From Candidatus Omnitrophota bacterium (GTDB lineage Bacteria > Omnitrophota > Gorgyraeia > 1-14-0-20-64-10), in the NCBI GenBank assembly GCA_016201735.1, contig JACQCH010000002.1:1-62928 (forward strand): a stretch of DNA of 62,928 nt, given 5' to 3'. Within the stretch, counting starts at the first letter, position 1, and every line of letters starts with the position of its first letter. Shown here in pieces: positions 2,525 through 42,367 of this stretch. Below the pieces are notes generated by a model. That model did not search any database. It saw only the letters and a program-made list of their open reading frames with translations, and was not told where the DNA came from. The translations under genes were made by a program, and so were the position numbers.

Positions 2525-3371
2525 GAAAAATATACCACTGCGTTGGATAGCGGCGGATGTATCTCTCCATGACTTCCAAGCAGGCCTGGCTGATCTGGCG
2601 CACCGCCTCTTCACGCTTCAAATCGGGCGGGACGGTGATGGGGCGCTCGAGGATAAACCGGTAGCGCCCACCCGGTTCCCGCACCAGGAAGCCGGGAACA
2701 ATCGGAGCCCTGGTTCTTAGATAAAAAGCGGCCGGGCCAGTTGGAACATCCAGCCACTTGCCGAAGAAAGGGAGTTTCAAACCATGATTGGAGAAATCCC
2801 GGTCGCCGACCAAGGCAAGAATCTGGTTGTTCCGAAGAACCGACAGGGCCGATTCAAAGAAAGACCTCCGACCGGCTTGGGTCAACGGGATCCCCCTGAC
2901 CCCTACCCGGCCCCTCTGCCTTTCAAAGAAAGCGTTCACGCGAGGGTTCCGGTGCGTCAGCACCACCGCATTCACCGGCAGTCCCGAGAGAGCCAGGACA
3001 GCCCCGGCCAGCTCGTAATTCCCCAGATGAGCCGTCAATCCGATCGCTCCCCGTCCGGATCGAAGAACCTCCCGCATCCAGTCCAATCCTTCGATCGTCA
3101 CCTGTTGTCTCATCTTCTCCGGGGAGAGCCGCTGGAAGCGGAAAAAATCGACCAGGTATTTCCCAAAATTTCGGAACACCTCCCGCACTTGGGCTTCGGA
3201 AACCTCCCGGGTTCCAAGGATCTGTTCCAGGTTGTGCCGGACTCCTTCCCGGTCCTTGGCGCACCACAAGCACCAGAAGTCGGCCAGCCGGCAGGCGATC
3301 CAATAGGAAACCGATCTCGGCAGAAGCAGGGTTCCCCATGAACCAATCCAATACAGCGCGTAGAAAAACAC
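2487..3371 (-). CDS. LpxL/HtrB-family lipid A (lysophospholipid) acyltransferase
   Basis: 294-aa ORF with GTG start. Length and the C-terminal YPTQWYIFHDFW resemble the lauroyl/myristoyl acyltransferase family. Confidence 0.7.
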   Translation of the reverse strand: MFFYALYWIGSWGTLLLPRSVSYWIACRLADFWCLWCAKDREGVRHNLEQILGTREVSEAQVREVFRNFGKYLVDFFRFQRLSPEKMRQQVTIEGLDWMREVLRSGRGAIGLTAHLGNYELAGAVLALSGLPVNAVVLTHRNPRVNAFFERQRGRVGVRGIPLTQAGRRSFFESALSVLRNNQILALVGDRDFSNHGLKLPFFGKWLDVPTGPAAFYLRTRAPIVPGFLVREPGGRYRFILERPITVPPDLKREEAVRQISQACLEVMERYIRRYPTQWYIFHDFWTPGPSVIL

Positions 3372-3376
3372 TTACT

Positions 3377-3399
3377 GTCGCCAACCGCGAGTTCTCAGC
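3377..3399. repeat. Solitary copy of the TIR of the rplB/rpsS element
   Basis: GTCGCCAACCGCGAGTTCTCAGC matches GTTGCCAACCGTGAGTTCTCAGC (22744-22766) at 21/23 positions. It fills the 23-nt gap between two CDS, and its TGA is the stop of the upstream gene. Confidence 0.55.
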
Positions 3400-4513
3400 A
3401 CATCATCCCCAAGACGAGCCGAGCGGCCTCACTGGCGGAGTTGGGCCTTCCAAGCCGTTTTGAATTGGCGGCCATCTGGGCGAGCTCCTGGGGATGCGTC
3501 AGAAGATGCTCCACGATCCGGGGCAGGGCGTCAGGGTCATCCACTTCCCGAGCCACATTGGCCCTTTCCAGGAAGTTCGCGTTCTTGACCTCTTGCCCTG
3601 GAATAGGATTGATCACAATCAATGGGAGCCCCGAAGCCAACGCCTCGGAAGTGGTCAGCCCCCCCGGTTTGGTCACAAGGAGAGTGGCCACCTTCATCAG
3701 CTCCGCGATAAATCCCACGTGCCCGAACACCCGGACCGAACAACGCAGACGGGGAATCTGTGAAATCAGCCGGTGATAAAGCCGCTCGTTGCTGCCGGCC
3801 ACCACCAACAACTGCAGCGGTTGGTCAATCGAGTCCAAGGCCTTGACCGCTTCCAGGAGAGGGCCCAATCCCTGACCCCCTCCCATGAGAAGGATCGTAG
3901 GAACCCCATTGGAAATCTGGAGCCGCCGCCGGATCATCTCAATGTTGGGGACCTCCGCGAAGCGGGGATCGATTGGGATTCCTGTCACGAAAATCTTCGC
4001 CGGGTCCACCTGATGATCCACCAGCCACTGACGAGTTTGATCAGCGCCAACGATGTAGCCGTCGACCAGGGGGTGAATCCAATAGGCGTGGGGATGAAAA
4101 TCAGTAATCGCTCCATACAGAGGGACGGAAACCCCATGCTCCTTCTTGTAGTCGGCCACCAAGCCGCAGGGAAAGGCCTGGGTGCAGGCGATCGAATCGG
4201 GTTGGAATTCATCCAGAAGGCCTTTCAAGCGGGGGGAATCGTACCGGTGGAGCAGCTGGCGAAAATGCTCCGAGCGCTCCACCACCTTCGGGTTGTCGTA
4301 CAGATAATCCCACAGGTCCGGCAGTTTCTGGATCACCGACATGTACATCCGGTCCACGATCCGGGCCAAGACCGGATTCAGATACTGGAAGGCGTCGATG
4401 GTCAGGATTTCGGCCCCGGGGTTTAAGGTGCGGATCCCCTCCTCCAAGGCCCGGGCCGCCTGAAAATGGCCCGAGCGGACCGTGATGTACATCAACAAGA
4501 TTTTCTTGTGCAT
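3395..4513 (-). CDS. MGDG-synthase/UgtP-like diacylglycerol glycosyltransferase (GT28)
   Basis: 372-aa ORF. N-terminal KILLMY..SGHFQAARAL and the C-terminal GT-B fold motif GGLTTSEALA resemble the remembered family. Confidence 0.7.
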   Translation of the reverse strand: MHKKILLMYITVRSGHFQAARALEEGIRTLNPGAEILTIDAFQYLNPVLARIVDRMYMSVIQKLPDLWDYLYDNPKVVERSEHFRQLLHRYDSPRLKGLLDEFQPDSIACTQAFPCGLVADYKKEHGVSVPLYGAITDFHPHAYWIHPLVDGYIVGADQTRQWLVDHQVDPAKIFVTGIPIDPRFAEVPNIEMIRRRLQISNGVPTILLMGGGQGLGPLLEAVKALDSIDQPLQLLVVAGSNERLYHRLISQIPRLRCSVRVFGHVGFIAELMKVATLLVTKPGGLTTSEALASGLPLIVINPIPGQEVKNANFLERANVAREVDDPDALPRIVEHLLTHPQELAQMAANSKRLGRPNSASEAARLVLGMMC

Positions 4514-9092: not shown

Positions 9093-10250
9093 TTAAAGCC
9101 CCTGAATGAAACGCTCGAGCCGGTCCAACCCTTCCTGGATAGATTCCAGTCCCACCGCGAAACTGAGCCGAACGTGGGAATCCCAGCCGAATCCCCCGCC
9201 CGGGATGACCGCCACCAAGGCCTCCTTCAACAGCCGTTCAGAAAACAGACCGGAATTTAACCCGGTCGCCGAGACGTCCACAAAACAGTAGAAGGCGCCG
9301 TCCGGCTTTACAAAGCTGATCTTCTTTATCTTAGACAGCCGCTCCACCATCCGATCCCGGCGCTTCTGAAATTCCTCCGCCATCTTTTTTACAGGGGCTT
9401 GGTCTTGCGTCAAGGCCGCCAAGGCGGCCCGTTGGCTGATCGAGGTAGGATTGGAAGTGGAATGGTCCTGAAGGCGCCCGGCCGCCTCGACAATCTCCGC
9501 CGGACCCGCCAGATATCCGATGCGCCAGCCGGTCATCGCGTAAGCCTTGGAAACCCCATCCACAACCACGGTGCGGGAGAAAACTTCCGGAGAGACCGAG
9601 GCGATTGAGGGACAGTCGCACCCATAAACCAATCGGCTGTAGATCTCATCGCTGATCACCCAGAGGTCCCGCTCCTTCGCCCACCGGGCCAAATCCTTCA
9701 AGACCTCCGCCTTGAGGACTGCTCCCGTGGGATTGGAAGGGCTGTTAAGAATAAGAACCTTGGCGCGGGAGGACCAGGCCTTCTCAAGGGCTTTCCTCTC
9801 CACCTGAAATCCGCTGGCAGGATCCGTGCGGACTTCTACCGGCGCGGCCCCCGCCAACCGGACCATCTCCGGGTAGCTGACCCAATAAGGAGAAGGAATC
9901 AAAACCTCTTCCCCCGCTTGAACGAGAACTTGGAGGAGATTAAAAAGGGCCTGTTTCGCTCCGCAGGTGACCGCAATCTGCTCGGGCCGGTAGGAAAGCC
10001 GACGCTCCTTGAGGAGGGTCGAGGCAATGGCGTTTTTAAGCTCAGGAATCCCGGTGGTCGGCGTGTATTTCGTGAAGCCCTCTTGAATGGCTTCGATGGC
10101 GGCTTTCTTGACGGCTTCCGGGGTATCGAAATCCGGTTCGCCGGCCGCTAAGTTAATGACTTTCTTGCCTTCCGCTTTCAGTTGTTTGGCTAAAGCGGTC
10201 ACCCGCAGCGTGGGGGAAGGTTGTACCGCCTGAATCCGCTGGGTCAGCAT
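9093..10250 (-). CDS. Aspartate aminotransferase (class I)
   Basis: ORF 9093..10622 trimmed to the ATG at 10250 (MLTQRIQAVQPSPTL..). NLAAGEPDFDTP and the SKAYAMTGWRIGY Lys motif. The upstream 124 codons overlap rplQ. Confidence 0.85.
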   Translation of the reverse strand: MLTQRIQAVQPSPTLRVTALAKQLKAEGKKVINLAAGEPDFDTPEAVKKAAIEAIQEGFTKYTPTTGIPELKNAIASTLLKERRLSYRPEQIAVTCGAKQALFNLLQVLVQAGEEVLIPSPYWVSYPEMVRLAGAAPVEVRTDPASGFQVERKALEKAWSSRAKVLILNSPSNPTGAVLKAEVLKDLARWAKERDLWVISDEIYSRLVYGCDCPSIASVSPEVFSRTVVVDGVSKAYAMTGWRIGYLAGPAEIVEAAGRLQDHSTSNPTSISQRAALAALTQDQAPVKKMAEEFQKRRDRMVERLSKIKKISFVKPDGAFYCFVDVSATGLNSGLFSERLLKEALVAVIPGGGFGWDSHVRLSFAVGLESIQEGLDRLERFIQGL

Positions 10251-10266
10251 GGGAGCGGTGGCGACA

Positions 10267-10833
10267 CTATGGGTTTTTAGGACGGTCTTTACGGTCTTTC
10301 TTGAAAATCGATCGCAAGCCCTCAAGGAATCCCTTGGGTTTCTCCGGCTTCCTCGGCTCTTCTTTCTTTGGGGGTTCGACTTTTGGCTTTTCAGCCGATT
10401 TGGGCTTCGGCGGCGCTGACGATGGGGGAGCAACCTCCTCCTTGACCTTCCCCTTGGGCTTGGCCGTTTTCTGAGGAGTCCGCTCGACCAGCTCCAAGAC
10501 CGCCATGGAAGCTCCATCTCCAGGACGGTGGTTGCCGTGGAGAATCCGGGTGTAGCCGCCGGGCCTCTGGGTAAAACGGGGGGCGATCTCCGAGAAAAGC
10601 CGAGCCACCATGGCCGTATCATCCAGAAGGGACAAGGCCCTCCGGCGGGAGGACAAGGAACCGGATTTCCCCAACGTGATGAGCCGTTCCGCCAGCCGCT
10701 GAGTCTCCTTGGCCCGGGCCAGGGTCGTCTCGATCTGTTCGTGCTTGAGCAGGGCAGAGGTTAAACTGCGCACCGTGGCTTTACGCCAACTGCGGGATCG
10801 ACCTAGATTCCGGGTGTAAACAGAATGAGGCAC
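10267..10833 (-). CDS. rplQ: Ribosomal protein L17 with a ~70-aa K/P/E-rich C-terminal tail
   Basis: LGRSRSWRKATVRSL..GGYTRIL core; follows rpoA as in alpha operons. Confidence 0.92.
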   Translation of the reverse strand: MPHSVYTRNLGRSRSWRKATVRSLTSALLKHEQIETTLARAKETQRLAERLITLGKSGSLSSRRRALSLLDDTAMVARLFSEIAPRFTQRPGGYTRILHGNHRPGDGASMAVLELVERTPQKTAKPKGKVKEEVAPPSSAPPKPKSAEKPKVEPPKKEEPRKPEKPKGFLEGLRSIFKKDRKDRPKNP

Positions 10834-13454: not shown

Positions 13455-13676
13455 TCACGACCGCGTCCGGAAGGTAATCCGTCCGCGCATCAAATCATAG
13501 GGGGATAATTCCACCGTCACTTTGTCGCCGGGCAGGATTCGGATAAAATGCATCCTCATCTTGCCCGCCACATGCGCTAAGATCTTGTGGCCATTCTCCA
13601 GTTCCACCCGAAACCTCGCGTTGGGAAGCGCCTCCATGACAATCCCCTCAACCTGAATCGCCTCTTCTTTTGGCAT
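13455..13676 (-). CDS. infA: Translation initiation factor IF-1
   Basis: 73 aa; [28 protein letters not shown]. Confidence 0.95.
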
Positions 13677-14422
13677 CAGATCCTAGTGAGAATCTCCGGC
13701 CCCGATTCGGTGACCGCCACCGTGTGCTCAAAGTGGGCGGACAGTTTCCGGTCCTTGGTGACTGCCGTCCAGCCATCGGCCAGGACCTCCACCGCCGCTC
13801 CCCCCTGGTTCACCATCGGCTCGATCGCCAACACCATCCCTTCTTTGAGGACGGGGCCGAAACCGGGCTTCCCGTAGTTGGGAATCTGGGGCGGTTCGTG
13901 AAGTTCCGTCCCGATCCCGTGCCCGACAAAGTCCCTCACGACAGAATAGCCGCGCGACTCCACCGTTCTCTGGACCGCATGAGAGATGTCGGACAGCCGG
14001 TTCCCCGGCCGGGCAAAGGCGATTCCCTCAGCGAGGGCGGCCTGAGTCACCGCCATCAGATCCGCCGCCTCCTGAGAAATCTGCCCCACGGCAACGGTAA
14101 CGGCCGCATCCCCGAAGTAACCCTCAACCGTGGCCCCGACATCCAATCCCACAATGTCCCCTTCCTTCAGTTTCCGGCGAGAGGGAATCCCATGAACCAC
14201 CTCTTCATTGACCGAGGCGCAGATGTTTCCGGGAAACCCCCGGTACCCTTTGAAGGCAGGCTTTCCCCCTTCTTGGCGGATCTTCTCGCCGGCCATCTCA
14301 TCCAACTCGGCGGTGGTGATTCCCGGCCGGACCTCTTTTTTCAACATCTCAATCACCTTCGCCACGATTCGGCCCGCCTCCCTCATCCTTTCCAGCTGAC
14401 TTGGACTCTTTAATTCAATCAC
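13676..14422 (-). CDS. map: Methionine aminopeptidase type I
   Basis: ORF trimmed to the GTG at 14422 ([17 protein letters not shown]), preceded by GGAGGGG. The longer ORF reads through repeat copy A. Confidence 0.88.
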
Positions 14423-14552
14423 CCCGCCCCTCCGGAATGGTGCCCTCGGCTCAGACGAGATGGACCCCTCGGAATTTTTTTTAGCCGAGGGCACCTGCGC
14501 CTTCGGCGCAGTGAAGCGGCCAAGGCCGCTTCATCATTCCGGAGGGGCGGGG
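14422..14552. mobile_element. Family-1 MITE copy A (TIR CCCCGCCCCTCCGG; TCA/TCA flanks at 14419-21 and 14553-55)
   Basis: Perfect 14-nt TIRs. Internal hairpins GGTGCCCTCGGCT/AGCCGAGGGCACC, TGCGCC-TTCG-GCGCA and GAAGCGGCC/GGCCGCTTC. Internal order is inverted relative to copies B-D. Confidence 0.8.
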
Positions 14553-15226
14553 TCATTCACCAGTTGCTCGGTCCGAAGCAAATCCAGAAGCAGCTGGTAC
14601 TGCTCCTCAATCCTACCCTCGCCGGAAACCTCCCGCAGTTTTCCCTGAGCCCGGTAAAATTCCAGTAAGGGGGCCGTTTGAGACTCGTAAACCTTCAGCC
14701 GATTTCGGATCGTCTGCGGATTGTCGTCCGGCCGGGTCCTCAACACCCCGCCGCATCGATCGCATAAGCCCCGCCGCTTGGAGGGCAGACGTTCCAGATG
14801 GTAATTGGCCCCGCACTTCTCGCAGACCCTGCGCCCAGCCAATCGGCCCACCATCGTCTCCTCCGAGACTTCAAACCCGATGGTCAGATCAATCGGGGAG
14901 TCTCCACTCCGAGCTAACGCTTCGTCCAGCGCCTTGGCCTGCTCCACCGTCCGGGGAAAACCGTCCAGCACAAACGGGATTTTCTTGCCTAGGTTCCCCA
15001 TCCGTTCCAAAATCAATTCGGTCACGAGCTCATCGGGAAGCAAGGAGCCCGATTCCATCAACCGGGCCGCCTCTTTGCCGCGAGGGTTCCCCTGTTGAAC
15101 CGATTCCCGGACCATCTCCCTCAGCAAATTCCCGCTCGACAGATGCGTCACCTTCAGCCGTTCCGCCAAAAGCAAAGCCAGCGTTCCCTTTCCGGCGCCG
15201 GGCGGACCCAAAAAGATCAGCCGCAC
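14534..15226 (-). CDS. adk: Adenylate kinase
   Basis: Trimmed to the GTG at 15226 (VRLIFLGPPGAGKGT). Zn-lid CEKCG..CDRCG. The last 6 codons (DPAPPE) are encoded by the MITE arm. Confidence 0.9.
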   Translation of the reverse strand: MRLIFLGPPGAGKGTLALLLAERLKVTHLSSGNLLREMVRESVQQGNPRGKEAARLMESGSLLPDELVTELILERMGNLGKKIPFVLDGFPRTVEQAKALDEALARSGDSPIDLTIGFEVSEETMVGRLAGRRVCEKCGANYHLERLPSKRRGLCDRCGGVLRTRPDDNPQTIRNRLKVYESQTAPLLEFYRAQGKLREVSGEGRIEEQYQLLLDLLRTEQLVNDPAPPE

Positions 15227-22101: not shown

Positions 22102-22455
22102 TCACCTCTTCACTTTCGAACCGTTCTTGGCATCCAATTGAATGATCAAATGAGATGATTTCTTCTGGAAACCCATCGCCCGGCCCATCGGAGCCGCCCG
22201 GAATCGCTTGGCCGACGGCCCCTCATCCGCCAGCACCCTGGAAATAACCAGCTGTTCCGGGGTCCAAGTTCCCTGACGAGTCGCATTGGCCACAGCGCTG
22301 TGGAGCACCTTAGCAATAGGAACCGCCGCCCCCCTGTTCAGGTTCTTAAGAAGGGCTTGGGCCTGAGGAACCTCCAACCCCCTGATGAGCCGGACCACCG
22401 ATCGGATCTTCCGAGGGGCGACGGGAAGGAACCGGCATTGGGCCTGTGCGATCAT
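22102..22455 (-). CDS. rplV: Ribosomal protein L22
   Basis: 117 aa; operon position; [13 protein letters not shown]. Confidence 0.94.
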
Positions 22456-22739
22456 GTCTTCGCCTGGGGTTTGGTCACGCCCTTGACCCCGTGCTTCTTG
22501 AACGTCCGCGTTGGGGAAAACTCCCCTAACTTATGCCCCACCATGTTCTCGGTCGCGAAAACGGGAAGAAACTTATTGCCGTTGTGAACCAGAAACGTAT
22601 GCCCCACGAAATCCGGCGTCACCGTGGAACGCCGGGACCAGGTCTTAATGGGTTTGCGCTCACCGGATTTCCCGAGCTTCTCGATCTTCTCCATCAAACA
22701 TTTGTCCACGAAGGGACCCTTGCGTGTGGATCGTCCCAT
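22452..22739 (-). CDS. rpsS: Ribosomal protein S19
   Basis: Trimmed to the ATG at 22739 ([12 protein letters not shown]..). The longer ORF reads through the inserted element. Confidence 0.93.
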
Positions 22740-22741
22740 TA

Positions 22742-23015
22742 GTGTTGCCAACCGTGAGTTCTCAGCCCGTTGGCTGAGGCGATTTTGGAGCGAGACAAGG
22801 AGCGAGGAGCGAGCATACTGAAACGAAGTATGTGAGCGACGAGCGACGCAGTCGCAGCCCAAAAGCGCCCAGCCCCTTCGGGGAAGCCCAGGATTGGTCC
22901 ATTTCTTCGTTGCTCCTCCTCGACGTGTTCCAGAGAACACGCCTTCGTCGTCGCGCCTCGAACTGGCCTCAATCCTGGGCTTCCAACGAGCTGAGAACTC
23001 ACGGTTGGCAACACC
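22742..23015. mobile_element. ~274-nt MITE with perfect 25-bp TIRs and a TA duplication, filling the rplB-rpsS gap
   Basis: GTGTTGCCAACCGTGAGTTCTCAGC (22742-22766) is the exact inverse of 22990-23014. TA lies at 22740-41 and 23016-17. Internal hairpins include CCCC-TTCG-GGGG and GGAAGCCCAGGATTG/CAATCCTGGGCTTCC. Confidence 0.8.
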
Positions 23016-23842
23016 TAGCGCCGCCGCTTCACAATGTACCGATCGGAGAGCTTTCGCTTTGATCGGGTTTTGAATCCTTTGGTCTGCCATCCCCAGGGAG
23101 AAACTGGGTGAGGATTCCCCTGACCGGATTTTCCTTCTCCGCCTCCATGCGGGTGATCATGCGGGTTCATCGCCAACCCGCGGGTATGAGGGCGGTGCCC
23201 AAGCCAACGGGACCTCCCCGCCTTGCCCAAAGAGAGACTTCCATGATCCTCATTGCCGATCTGGCCCACCGTGGCATAGCAGACAGCACGGACCATCCGC
23301 ATTTCACCGGAAGGAAGGCGCAGCGTCGCGAAGTCTCCTTCCTTGGCCAAGAGCTGGGCCGCCGTGCCGGCGGAACGGACGATCTGTCCGCCACGCCCCG
23401 GCTCCAGCTCAATGTTGTGCACAAAGGTTCCCAATGGGATCGCTGTCAAGGGCAGAGCGTTCCCCGGAGAAACCTCCGCCTTCTCTCCAGACATCACGCT
23501 GGTCCCAACCGTCAATTCTCTGGGAGCCACGATGTACCGCCGCTGCGCATCCGGATACTCCAGCAGGGCCAGCCGGGCGGACCGGTTCGGATCGTATTCG
23601 ATCGCCACCACCCGGGCGGGAACATCCCTCCGGTCCCTCTTGAAATCGACAATCCGGATCATCCGTTTGCGCCCGCCCCCTCGATGGCGGACGGTCACGC
23701 GGCCCCGATTGTTGCGGCCGCCCGAGCCCCTTAAAGGAACGAGGAGTCCCTTCTCCGGCTTATCCTTCGTGATCTCCTCGAAGGTTGCGGTCGTCATGTG
23801 CCGCCGAGAAGGAGTGTACGGTTTATAGCTTTTTACCGCCAT
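23015..23842 (-). CDS. rplB: Ribosomal protein L2
   Basis: 275 aa; [16 protein letters not shown] and HPHGGGEG motifs. Confidence 0.97.
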
Positions 23843-24895: not shown

Positions 24896-25662
24896 TATTT
24901 CTTCTCCTTGGCGGCCGCGGGGGCTTTGGGAGCAGGCGCCTTGGCGGCTGCCGCTTTCGCAGCCGGCGCTTTTGCCGCCTGGGGAGCACCCGCCTTCTTC
25001 TTTACCTGAGGAGCGTGCACCACTTTAGGCGGCTTGCGTGATCTCCGGATCAACACAACTCCCTGATCATGGCCGGGAACCGCCCCCTTAACCAGCAGCA
25101 GATTTTCGGCGGCATCGACCCGGATCACCTCGAGGGCCTGCGTTGTCACCCGCTCTCCTCCCATTCGACCCGGCAGATGATGCCCTTTAAAAACCCGGGA
25201 AGGATTCGTGCTGGAACCGATCGAACCGGGAGCCCGGTGCGACATGGAGCCGTGCGTCTGCGGGCCTCCCTTCCAATGCCAACGCTTCACCCCTCCCTGA
25301 AACCCTTTCCCAATAGAAGTCCCCGTCACATCGATCCGATCTCCGGGCTTAAACAGATCAACGGTCACAGAAGACCCCACGGCAACCTGCTGATCGGCAG
25401 GAAGGCGAAATTCCCGCACCAGACGCTGTGGGGAAACGTTGGCCTTGGTGAACCGTCCCAAGAAAGGCTTGGAAATCCTCTTCGAATCCCCCGGCTCAAA
25501 ACCGAGCTGGACCGCTCGATAACCATCCTTTTCAGGAGTTTTCACCTGGACCACCGTGCAGGGGCCTGCCGCAAGAACGGTGACCGGAACCGGCCGGCCA
25601 TCCTCCCGGAAGATCTGCGCCATTCCCAGTTTTCGTCCTATCAATCCCAGCCCCGGTTTCAC
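24895..25662 (-). CDS. rplC: Ribosomal protein L3 with an A/K/P-rich C-terminal tail
   Basis: Trimmed to the GTG at 25662 (VKPGLGLIGRKLGMAQIF), preceded by GGAGGGG from MITE copy B. Confidence 0.9.
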   Translation of the reverse strand: MKPGLGLIGRKLGMAQIFREDGRPVPVTVLAAGPCTVVQVKTPEKDGYRAVQLGFEPGDSKRISKPFLGRFTKANVSPQRLVREFRLPADQQVAVGSSVTVDLFKPGDRIDVTGTSIGKGFQGGVKRWHWKGGPQTHGSMSHRAPGSIGSSTNPSRVFKGHHLPGRMGGERVTTQALEVIRVDAAENLLLVKGAVPGHDQGVVLIRRSRKPPKVVHAPQVKKKAGAPQAAKAPAAKAAAAKAPAPKAPAAAKEKK

Positions 25663-25801
25663 CCCGCCCCTCCCGAGTTCCGCTTCTCTCCCTGCAGGGA
25701 GAGAAGCACTGTGCCGAAGGCACAGATGCCCTCGGCTGTCTCCCACTTGAATCTTAAAGAATCCACCCCTCCTGCCGAGGGCATACCCCGGAGGGGCGGG
25801 G
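25662..25801. mobile_element. Family-1 MITE copy B (between rpsJ and rplC)
   Basis: TIRs at 25662-75 and 25788-801; TCA at 25659-61 and 25802-04. Hairpins CTTCTCTCCC-TGCA-GGGAGAGAAG, CTGTGCC-GAA-GGCACAG and GCCCTCGGC/GCCGAGGGC. Confidence 0.85.
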
Positions 25802-26113
25802 TCATTTGATTTCCACGTCCACGCCGGCGGGCAGATCCAACTTCCGCAGCGCATCGACCGTCTTGGAGGTCGGGTTCAGAATATCCAGAAGGCGCTTATG
25901 CGTCTTCATCTGGAACTGCTCGCGGGATTTCTTATCAACATGAGGAGAACGCAAAACCGTGTAAATCTCCCGCCTTGTGGGAAGCGGCACCGGGCCCGAA
26001 ACCGAAGCCCCGGTCCGGCGGGCCGACTCGACGATCTCCGCCGTCGACTGGTCCAGGATTCGGTGATCGTATGCCTTCAACTTGATCCGGATCTTCCTCT
26101 GTTGTTCGGCCAT
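25802..26113 (-). CDS. rpsJ: Ribosomal protein S10
   Basis: Trimmed to the ATG at 26113 ([21 protein letters not shown]). TGATG overlap with the fusA stop. Confidence 0.95.
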
Positions 26114-38131: not shown

Positions 38132-38824
38132 TCATTCTTCCGGTTTCCCTTCCGCCGGATCCAGCCGGATCCCAGGCCCCATCGTGCTCGAAAGAGCGAC
38201 CGATCGGACGTATCGTCCCTTCACCGAAGCCGGCTTTGCTTTCCAGAGGGCGGTCAAAAGAGCATGGGCATTCTCCTCCAAGGCCTCCTCCGGGAACGAC
38301 CGCTTGCCGATTCCCAGATGGATGTCCCCCTGCTTGTCCATCTTAAACTCCACCTTCCCCCCTTTGACTTCCTTCACCGCTCTGGCGACATCCATGGTGA
38401 CCGTGCCGGCCTTGGGACTGGGCATGAGGCCCCGGGGCCCCAGAAACTTTCCCAGCTTGCCCACCTCTTTCATCAGGTCCGGGGTCGAGACCACCACATC
38501 AAAATCGAGCCACCCTCCCTGGATCTTTTCGATCAGTTCTTCCGCTCCGACATGGTCGGCTCCGGCTTCCTTCGCCGCCCGCTCCATCTCTCCCTTGGCG
38601 AAGACCAGAACCTTCACCGATTTTCCGGTTCCATGGGGGAGGACGACCGTTCCCCGAACCGTGGCATCGGTCTGCTTCGGGTCCACGTCCAAATCAATGG
38701 CGATCTCGACCGACTCATCAAACTTTGGAGCGGGGGCCTTCTTCAAAAGGGATACCGCCTCCTTCAGGCCGTACCGCTTCCCCGGTTCCACCAGCTGCTG
38801 GGCGGCCGCGGTCCGCTTACTCAC
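38132..38824 (-). CDS. rplA: Ribosomal protein L1
   Basis: Trimmed to the GTG at 38824 (VSKRTAAAQQLVEPGKRYGLKEAV), preceded by GGAGGGG of MITE copy C. Confidence 0.9.
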   Translation of the reverse strand: MSKRTAAAQQLVEPGKRYGLKEAVSLLKKAPAPKFDESVEIAIDLDVDPKQTDATVRGTVVLPHGTGKSVKVLVFAKGEMERAAKEAGADHVGAEELIEKIQGGWLDFDVVVSTPDLMKEVGKLGKFLGPRGLMPSPKAGTVTMDVARAVKEVKGGKVEFKMDKQGDIHLGIGKRSFPEEALEENAHALLTALWKAKPASVKGRYVRSVALSSTMGPGIRLDPAEGKPEE

Positions 38825-39008
38825 CCCGCCCCTCCGGAGTCCCGTTTCCATCCCTGCAGGGATGGAAACGCTGTGCCGAAGGCACAGATGCCCTCGGCGG
38901 TCTCCCACTCCAATAGATCACCCTTTCCATAAAATACCTGTAGCAGATCCTTGGATCTTAAAGAATCCACCCCCCCTCTGCCGAGGGCATACTCCGGAGG
39001 GGCGGGGC
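38824..39008. mobile_element. Family-1 MITE copy C (between rplK and rplA), with an extra ~45-nt internal segment
   Basis: TIRs at 38824-37 and 38994-39007; TCA at 38821-23 and 39009-11. Shares GCCGAGGGCATCTGTGCCTTCGGCACAG with copy B (copy D has TTGGG in place of TTCGG). Confidence 0.85.
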
Positions 39009-41808: not shown

Positions 41809-41882
41809 AGCTGGAGACGGGAATCGAACCCGTGACCCCGTCCTTACCAAGGACGTGCTCTACCAAACTGAGCTACTCCAGC
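41809..41882 (-). tRNA. tRNA-Thr (GGT)
   Basis: Hand-folded: GCTGGAG acceptor, anticodon loop TTGGTAA, T-loop TTCGATT, 74 nt. Confidence 0.9.
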
Positions 41883-42001: not shown

Positions 42002-42222
42002 GGCCACGGGTCCTGGCGTGGGGCGGCCCCGCATCCGGCATCGGGCCTTGTTCGGATGGGTTGTTCACATATACCATGTCAGAGCAAAGGCAGGTGACCA
42101 AACCCAACAGGCCTCTCCATGGAAAGTCGTACAGTTCAGCATGGGTTTCCATTCGGTCAGGGCTTGGCCTCACACGTCGGTCCTGCTGGCGTCTGCGGGG
42201 CCGCCCCACGCCACCCGTGGCC
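42002..42222. repeat. Long imperfect hairpin element R2 (between tRNA-Gly and the tuf promoter)
   Basis: GGCCACGGGTCCTGGCGTGGGGCGGCCCCGCA pairs with TGCGGGGCCGCCCCACGCC-ACCCGTGGCC. The internal arms also pair. Homologous to 681..891. Confidence 0.7.
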
Positions 42223-42296: not shown

Positions 42297-42367
42297 AGCG
42301 GGCGACGGGAATCGAACCCGTATCTCCTCCTTGGAAGGGAGGAGCTCTACCACTGAGCTACACCCGC
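42297..42367 (-). tRNA. tRNA-Gly (TCC)
   Basis: Hand-folded: GCGGGTG acceptor, anticodon loop CTTCCAA, 71 nt. Confidence 0.9.

Follow-up and report, generated by a model that had tools for sequence, protein, structure and literature searches.

A structured palindromic element between rplB and rpsS in Candidatus Omnitrophota and a possible translational relay through it

In a genome of a Candidatus Omnitrophota bacterium (assembly GCA_016201735.1), the ribosomal protein genes rplB and rpsS are separated by a 274-nt structured palindromic element that ends two bases before the rpsS start codon. The locus lies on contig JACQCH010000002.1, and all coordinates refer to the 62,928-nt stretch of it that was analysed, here called the window. 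Both genes are on the minus strand, and the sense strand of the element is the gene strand (Table 1).

The element and its copies

The 3' end of rplB reads ...AAG CGG CGG CGC TAG, with the stop codon at 23017-23015, and the G of that codon (23015) is also the first base of the element. The stop is followed by 273 nt, from GTGTTGCC... through ...GGCAACAC, and then by TA and the rpsS ATG at 22739, a start backed by Pfam Ribosomal_S19, which aligns from protein residue 3. The ends of the element form a perfect 25-nt inverted repeat (22742-22766 / 22990-23014), and the pairing reaches 32 nt at 97% (22742-22773 / 22983-23014), its sole mismatch being a G·U in the sense transcript; such an arm match is absent from shuffles of the window (expected 0.00). 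Removal of the element together with one TA in silico yields CGCTAATGGGA. A first-pass annotation, made from the sequence alone, had described a 274-nt element with perfect 25-bp arms between the two genes, a TAG stop that uses the element's G, an ATG 2 nt past the 3' arm and the same excision product, and its description is right in each detail that can be checked. The TA/TA flanks that it reported are true of the window copy, not of the family as a whole.

The element is inserted, multi-copy and mobile. The rplB-rpsS junction measures 4-9 nt in relatives, and empty sites are found at locus L012 (TAA GGAGAAGAC ATG) and in a relative of about 88% identity in sequencing run X5 (CGGCGG AGA TAA TCGG TTG GGA CGA); one more contig, from run X7, fits an empty site as well. 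The insert thus splits a normally short spacer, as the first-pass annotation had supposed, and the long spacer is not a conserved one. The converse arrangement is seen at the map/infA junction, which is empty in the window and is filled by a copy of the element in the organism of L010/L011 (two records of the same site). The spc operons of these two organisms are 74-80% identical, as against 95% for their element copies. In four groundwater runs that hold the window locus (X1-X4), the element has a depth of 60-160, against about 15 for its flanks (5-10x), and several contigs enter it from different flanks; these too match through CAT-TA. No empty-site joint was seen in these four runs. Both Logan contigs that encode the identical L2 protein end 49 nt into the element.

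The scans of JGI metagenomes and of a genome collection were queried with the arm, not with the conserved core, and so amount to a limited census. The survey for further copies that the first-pass annotation had proposed gave, in the JGI metagenomes, four more loci besides the window, adjoining other genes (L004, L007, L009 and L010). Identity is 93-97% for full-length copies and falls to 85-88% for L007, from which 81 nt are deleted. The match L001, in an Acidobacteriaceae coding region, was a single chance match of the genome-collection scan, and L005, L006 and L008 were chance single-arm matches of the metagenome scan. Viral contigs searched with the core pattern gave no match, and a protein search with the antisense translation of the element gave nothing.

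At all five loci found by nucleotide search, the window included, the element lies in sense orientation between co-directional genes and ends 2-3 nt before the next ATG. The genes downstream are rpsS, a SPOR-domain gene, lpxD, a response regulator (OmpR-type) and infA. The 3' end reads ...GGCAACAC TA ATG, except for TAA ATG in L010, and TA comes after the 3' arm not only in each of the five loci of this subfamily but also in L012. On the 5' side, TA is present only in the window and L010, the corresponding bases being AC in L004 and AT in both L007 and L009, and the merged flank consensus of the other copies in X1-X4 ends in AT or GT, not TA. Because the 5' flank is not constant, the TA duplication that the first-pass annotation proposed is not supported as a general property. 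In L007 and in the merged consensus of X1, X2 and X4, the last three bases of the 5' flank are ATG or GTG, in register with the open frame of the element. The upstream stop codon lies 0-6 nt from the outer helix in most operon copies; in L004 it lies 26 nt before the element, and in L010 the frame of the upstream gene, map, continues through the first 23 nt of the 5' arm and so past the GTG with which that arm opens. CGCT stands just 5' of the element at four independent insertion sites: GCGCTAG (window 23018-23023; L010), ACGCTA (L017, ~961-967) and GCGCTGTGA (L012, ~2992-3000). At two of the sites, the window and L012, they belong to the codons with which L2 and L14 naturally end, and the common CGCT is either a target preference or a coincidence.

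The window also holds a solo 3'-arm remnant of 26 nt, lying between a glycosyltransferase (MGDG-synthase-like) gene and a lipid A acyltransferase gene; it is followed by TAA and then by the GTG start of the acyltransferase gene, with no Shine-Dalgarno (SD) motif. The arm sequence occurs in the window only here and at the element.

Table 1. Coordinates of the element, its parts and related features in the 62,928-nt window
Feature	Position	Strand	Remark
rplB (ribosomal protein L2, 275 aa)	23015..23842	-	Pfam Ribosomal_L2_N and Ribosomal_L2_C on an identical product
5'-flank TA	23016..23017	-	First two bases of the rplB stop TAG; among other copies only L010 has TA here
Structured palindromic element, 274 nt	22742..23015	-	nhmmer E = 3e-102
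P1 5' arm, outer helix (GTGTTGCCAACCGTGAGTTCTCAGCTCGTTGG)	22983..23014	-	Opens with GTG straight after the rplB stop
Arm P2, long hairpin	22882..22984	-	Base is a perfect 15-bp pair, 22882-22896 / 22970-22984
Internal SD-like GAGGAGGAG (22913-22921), then ATG (22902-22900)	22900..22921	-	Starts a 46-codon frame, 22762..22902, ending at the TGA of the 3' arm
Small hairpin CCCCGAAGGGG at the three-way junction	22873..22883	-	Unchanged in 8 members of alignment A1; altered in distant L018 and L019
Arm P4	22774..22872	-	Holds the nearly invariant core, including the pyrimidine tract CTCGCTCCTCGCTCCTTGTCTCGCTCC
P1 3' arm, outer helix (CCAACGGGCTGAGAACTCACGGTTGGCAACAC)	22742..22773	-	2 nt separate the arm end from the rpsS ATG
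TA joining the 3' arm to the rpsS ATG	22740..22741	-	With the A of ATG forms the TAA closing frame A (TAATG)
Frame A, 91 codons	22739..23014	-	GTG at 23014 to the TAA overlapping the rpsS ATG
rpsS (ribosomal protein S19, 95 aa)	22452..22739	-	Start ATG 22739-22737
Empty map/infA junction (ATCTGATGCC)	13672..13680	-	The L010/L011 relative has an element copy at the same junction
Solo 3'-arm remnant, 26 nt (GCTGAGAACTCGCGGTTGGCGACAG)	3375..3401	-	The stop of the upstream gene is the arm's TGA
CCCCGCCCC elements (CCCCGCCCCTCCGG...CCGGAGGGGCGGGG)	14417-14557, 25661-25802, 38824-39007		adk/map, rpsJ/rplC and a third stop-start junction

Fold, core and wider family

For the sense-strand RNA, the predicted fold has an energy of -155 kcal/mol (z = -9.9 relative to shuffles), with a long outer helix, P1, that closes a three-way junction. 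In this predicted fold the rplB stop stands at helix position 0 and the rpsS ATG at +2, which agrees with the earlier proposal that stop and start are held at the base of a long helix. Arm P2 has a tip hairpin at 22924-22941, and the entire arm is deleted in L007 (81 nt). A core of about 150 nt is almost invariant across subfamilies, and SD-like GAGGAGGAG and anti-SD-like CUCCU tracts are conserved within the element. The outer arms differ wholly in sequence between subfamilies (GTGTTGCCAACC.., ATGCACCCGACC.., GTGCACCCGGCG.., AGGGCCTGTAAAG.., ACTGAGCCTCCG..) and yet remain complementary.

Covariation was assessed on seven diverse members of the family, in which 95.9% of the cells are paired and 25 pairs show double compensatory changes. 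None of 500 shuffles reached that number, and slid controls gave 3-6. Compensatory changes in P2 are seen in L004, L009, L010, L012 and L017. When the sense strand is folded, G·U wobbles outnumber A·C mispairs by 30 to 8, as against 16 to 23 when the antisense strand is folded, so the selected structure is that of the gene strand. The variable columns of P1 are unevenly distributed between the arms (9/33 in the 5' arm against 1/32 in the 3' arm; Fisher p = 0.013), and P1 in other copies contains mismatched internal loops. Judged from the alignments, the element looks like a conserved folded RNA or single-stranded DNA, unlike an inverted repeat that is bound by a transposase. At the Rfam gathering threshold only tRNAs match across the whole window, which carries no rRNA, and nothing relevant appears at E <= 10 on either strand of 22600-23150.

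Diverged members were located by searching a protein collection with translations of the element, and thus by way of called open reading frames (ORFs). Their settings are varied. L012 lies between rplN and rplX, with the junctions TGATG...TAATG; P0002 and P0005 abut genes on both sides; L019 lies about 50 nt upstream of rpoN; L016 and L017 adjoin convergent genes; and P0003 is in antisense orientation. L018 comes from the complete genome of Candidatus Velamenicoccus archaeovorus (CP019384.1), of the phylum Omnitrophota, where pcnB and rbfA flank it. This member (10055-10418) owes its length of 364 nt to a tandem duplication in its interior, the repeated unit being GGGCTGGA.CCTC.TT.AAATGGA.TGCGGAG.TCC. 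A GGAGG in its 3' arm lies 9 nt ahead of the rbfA ATG and pairs with CCTCC of the 5' arm, so that the L018 subfamily brings an SD in masked form.

In one wastewater and one groundwater metagenome, and in a groundwater metatranscriptome (X6, X7, X19), the depth of the core greatly exceeds that of every flank; the family seems to be common in, and transcribed by, many organisms. When the runs were compared with window positions 22751-22955, X6 and X7 gave a depth of 250-370 over the core only, with other, AT-rich arms. In the metatranscriptome, whose contigs are unstranded and pool many loci, the core reaches a depth of up to 131, compared with about 8 for neighbouring S19 fragments. No description of the family was found in the literature searched. 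It constitutes an undescribed set of mobile elements, palindromic, highly structured and non-autonomous, that occurs in bacteria of groundwater and wastewater and is also present in Ca. Velamenicoccus archaeovorus. Taken by themselves, this link and the groundwater and wastewater sources would suggest a host in Omnitrophota or a neighbouring group.

Translation across the element

How is S19 made when the element stands between rpsS and the rest of its operon? None of the motifs GGAG, GAGG or AGGA occurs within 25 nt before the rpsS ATG; an SD-type motif is found 4-10 nt upstream of most of ten other starts in the window (rplB, rpsC, rplP, rplN, infA, rpsM, rplD). The element has left rpsS without an SD, as had been noticed at first pass. 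Scans at the element found no promoter-like (sigma-70-type) site and, on its sense strand, no terminator-like site, so the internal promoter or overlooked ribosome-binding site that the first-pass annotation had held open for S19 did not turn up. A sigma-54 or sigma-70 promoter in the 3' arm was also considered; the scan was negative, and the spacing would hinge on host codons. TATAAT-like boxes 5-7 nt upstream of several copies, which as promoters would have made the element a complete 5' leader, were dropped because in L009 the box coincides with the end of the upstream gene, around its stop (ATA TAA TGA), and because a co-directional gene ends just upstream at every locus. The frame in phase with rpsS happens to be free of stops in the window copy, giving a mechanical 212-aa ORF (22452-23090, minus strand) that overlaps the end of rplB; in other copies this frame contains stops. 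The gene-call index has no entry for the exact 95-aa S19, possibly because callers extended the ORF through the element.

Since the SD has been removed and the region upstream of the start is buried in a helix, S19 synthesis would have to depend on ribosomes that come from rplB; independent loading of 30S subunits at rpsS is unlikely. Termination-reinitiation collapses beyond about 20 nt in Escherichia coli and Haloferax volcanii (PMC10666635), and a gap of 276 nt therefore needs either a relay or a bridge. Frame A would provide the former. Our reading, which we hold tentatively, is that a MITE-like (miniature inverted-repeat transposable element) structured insert occupies the rplB/rpsS junction and that frame A relays ribosomes from rplB to rpsS. 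The element would be transcribed within the S10 operon mRNA. A ribosome terminating at the rplB UAG would already have opened the first turn of the 5' arm and could restart at the GUG directly after the stop (UAG GUG), read the 91-codon frame through the element, melting the structure as it goes, stop at the UAA of UAAUG and restart on rpsS. The element would then be a translationally transparent relay cistron, the peptide itself being irrelevant.

The geometry of the junctions is what suggests this course of events. At the 5' end, UAG GUG in the window has its counterparts in UGAUG (L012), UAA-AC-AUG (L007) and directly adjacent codons (P0002). At the 3' end, UAAUG is present in the window, L004, L007, L009 and L012, and UAA AUG in L010; elsewhere the frames overlap by 1 nt (P0002, by coordinates) or 4 nt (P0005), or stand at +1 (L018) and -7 (L019). 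None of the five close copies interrupts frame A, and the two indels among them (-81, +3) have lengths divisible by three. It matches no Pfam family and has no third-position bias, and the substitutions between the window and L012 fall evenly on the three codon positions (12/13/16), which indicates no selection on a protein; the element thus does not behave as a small-protein gene. An open frame also traverses the element in L018 and L019. The one in L018 reads the core in another frame, as would fit if openness, and not a peptide, were under selection. L017, where the element is not upstream of a gene, has frame A broken by a 1-nt insertion. From these features we infer that frame A is translated and that coupling through it feeds rpsS. 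A second candidate for the relay, the 46-codon frame that follows the internal SD-like motif, was rejected because it is not conserved: it is deleted in L007 and truncated in L009, and its ATG is lost in L016.

Several observations weigh against a relay through frame A. An open frame of that length occurs in about 15% of dinucleotide shuffles of the element (p ~0.15). Open frames in the five close copies do not count independently, since these copies have a common ancestry, and the members found via called ORFs (L012, L016, L017, L018, L019 and P0002-P0006) are biased towards open frames by the way in which they were found. The upstream stops of L004 and L010 are out of place for it, the former lying 26 nt before the element and the latter reached only after the map frame has passed the GTG. 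A structure of -155 kcal/mol would, if it forms as modelled, slow translation. Finally, the strong conservation of the 3' arm and the solo arm that precedes a GTG start suggest that the sequence of this arm may itself be important for initiation, which a relay does not require.

The alternative to a relay is a bridge. The first-pass annotation had likened the TA duplication of the element to that of IS630/mariner-type MITEs, and an element of this type might remain untranslated, its helix holding the stop beside the start so that the ribosome restarts across the helix base in a shunt-like manner. The TA/TA of the window copy and L010 agrees with such an origin, and the positions of the stop (0) and the ATG (+2) on the helix, together with the closeness of the upstream stop to the helix in most operon copies, suit a bridge. 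By its helicase footprint, a terminating ribosome would be expected to unwind about 10 nt of the 5' arm, freeing the end of the 3' arm and the AUG. Unrelated palindromes in the same operons, the CCCCGCCCC elements (~140-185 nt), share the stop-helix-start layout: they sit exactly at stop-start overlaps, with the stop before the helix and the start after it, as the first-pass annotation had pointed out. It was also correct in treating them as a distinct family, since their sequence is unrelated and all three window copies have TGA on both flanks. They are no true parallel for an arm that lacks an SD, however, because their 3' arm carries GGAGG, the last G of which forms the downstream GTG start with the flanking TG; unlike the 274-nt element they bring their own SD and can work by ordinary SD unmasking. 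In the adk/map copy, the upstream frame reads into the 5' arm. As to the IS630 origin, the 5' TA is missing in L004, L007, L009 and the X1-X4 consensus, the family varies in its arms and is conserved in its core, and a limited search found no transposase partner. The bridge itself is hard to reconcile with a stop 26 nt from the helix in L004 and inside it in L010, and we know of no precedent for helix-bridged reinitiation in bacteria. On balance this combination of origin and mechanism seems rather unlikely.

Quite unlikely, in our view, is a third route, by which RNase III would cut the 32-bp duplex, which continues into P2, and separate the rplB and rpsS mRNAs, leaving rpsS nearly leaderless or with a short, unstructured 5' end for SD-free loading. 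The uninterrupted helix of 32-46 bp in the window copy would be a suitable substrate, and the documented RNase III cleavage of co-transcribed Correia repeats (PMC10969869, PMC2229807) is a precedent. The abundance of the core relative to neighbouring coding fragments in the metatranscriptome is what a stable excised structure would give, with the reservation already made about unstranded contigs and pooled loci. The internal loops of P1 in other copies, however, would make these poorer substrates, and the arms would still be base-paired after cleavage. Least probable is that the element serves its hosts as a cis-regulatory RNA, a sensor or leader that gates translation-related genes (rpsS, rplX, infA, rbfA, rpoN). 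Its core is nearly invariant among organisms whose housekeeping genes differ by 20-25%, its structure covaries, four identified downstream genes encode ribosomal proteins or translation factors, and the SD-like GAGGAGGAG and anti-SD-like CUCCU are conserved inside it. Against this, orthologous sites differ in presence and absence of the element; identity of 93-97% is kept before unrelated genes (lpxD, the SPOR-domain gene, the response regulator); copies lie between convergent genes or in antisense (L016, L017, P0003); a solo-arm remnant exists; and no Rfam family matches.

A separate question is whether placement reflects movement and not function. Single-strand transposition of the HUH type (IS200/IS605- or REPIN-like), in one orientation, without duplication and into a CATTA target on the plus strand (TAATG on the gene strand), would account for the orientation bias as well as the position against start codons, with no need for functional selection. 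The lack of a consistent duplication, the strict orientation, the covarying single-strand structure and the resemblance of the solo arm to a REP singlet are all in keeping with it, as is the flank pattern, one side being constant (TAATG or TAAATG) in two subfamilies and the other varying. On the other hand, the ends of IS200/IS605 (PATE-like) elements are separate subterminal hairpins and not arms that pair with each other, whereas the ends here pair with each other in a single unbroken 32-bp helix. The excess of wobble pairs points to the gene strand, whereas it is on the opposite strand that the constant target would be found, 5' of the element. The flanks of L016 and L017 are different, and no Y1 transposase or RAYT gene was seen, although no proper search was made for either. 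We consider this mode of movement unlikely. Rather unlikely, too, is a broader version of our reading, in which the element is a selfish relay cistron: a sense-oriented structured RNA/DNA module that inserts at start codons, or survives only there, brings its own start codon, places its stop over the host ATG and has a conserved core serving its own propagation, possibly via an RNA or single-strand intermediate. Such an intermediate, if it exists, would explain both the strand bias and the missing target duplication.

Relations to known repeats and significance

By its size (274 nt), copy number (at least five loci, with filled and empty sites), 32-bp arms, stable transcript fold and lack of a Pfam domain in frame, the element fits the generic definition of a bacterial MITE. 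No target duplication of one length is common to all copies; TA/TAA is constant on the 3' side only, and duplications of 3 or 4 nt (TNA, YTAR, ATG) likewise fail to fit all copies. The nearest functional analogues are the Correia, ERIC/YPAL and Rickettsia palindromic elements (PMC2229807, PMC10969869). Like this element, the Correia or NEMIS repeats of Neisseria are small and non-autonomous, with terminal inverted repeats of ~24-26 bp, TA termini and a co-transcribed long stem that RNase III can cut (PMC2229807, PMC10969869). They differ in being 100-155 bp long, as against 274 nt with a three-way junction, and in belonging to a different phylum; moreover, in the present family it is the interior and not the arms that is conserved, the TA duplication is inconsistent, and the operon copies are strictly sense and stand 2-3 nt from the next start codon. 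No sequence resemblance to Correia was noticed, and no direct comparison was made. The ERIC/IRU, YPAL and Rickettsia elements are also palindromic and transcribed in operons, and many have an uninterrupted frame that is co-translated with host genes (PMC2229807). Their frames are in-frame fusions in host genes or extensions of the upstream gene; here, by contrast, the frame is a separate mini-cistron that starts at the first bases of the element and stops in overlap with the next ATG.

The REP/BIME/REPIN (RAYT) repeats resemble the element in being intergenic operon palindromes that occur as doublets and singlets, and in that single-strand structure is thought relevant to their mobility (PMC2817692). 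REP units, on the other hand, measure 20-40 nt and have a GTAG head; the element is larger, with a conserved core, no GTAG head and no tandem mosaic, and is thus of the wrong unit size for a REP or REPIN, a RAYT gene not having been searched for in this comparison. None of the Rfam families considered (group I/II introns, riboswitches, ribosomal protein leaders, HEARO) accounts for it. The 5' GUGYG-like and 3' AY-like ends are suggestive of a group I or group II intron, but the element matches no Rfam intron and is too small; an integron attC was set aside on account of size, conserved sequence and absence from cassette arrays. As to coupling, UAG GUG and UAAUG have the 0 / -1 geometry of termination-reinitiation at ATGA, TGATG and TAATG overlaps (PMC6728339, PMC10666635). 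In known cases two host genes are coupled directly, whereas here a mobile, non-conserved frame of 91 codons would intervene. What is distinctive is the three-way-junction core with covarying arms, the sense orientation and start abutment in two subfamilies, and the geometry of the mini-cistron.

One further inverted repeat was noted in the window. At 42014-42213, between tRNA genes at 41809-41882 and 42297-42367, there is a 32-nt repeat (84% complementary, 136 nt apart) rich in GGGGCGGCCCCG, which is possibly another palindromic insert.

Repeats of this kind break short-read assemblies within ribosomal operons. Soft-clip 'hypervariable' calls over the S10/spc operons have been reported in 150/223 Omnitrophota genomes and read as mobile cargo (bioRxiv 10.64898/2026.06.07.730766); as a speculation, polymorphic multi-copy palindromic inserts may contribute to these signals. 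For the host, the copies directly before rpsS, infA, lpxD and rplX mean that the ribosome-binding region of essential genes has been replaced by an SD-less 32-nt arm in a very stable helix, and that this is tolerated. An explanation would reveal either a new form of translational coupling, through a relay frame or by helix-bridged reinitiation, or SD-independent initiation in this lineage. If the selfish form of our reading is true, the relay cistron is a natural, portable device for translational coupling. Since the core is abundant, covarying and conserved, and since neither Rfam nor the literature searched contains it, the family is a candidate for a new class of structured RNA or mobile element in Omnitrophota and their neighbours.

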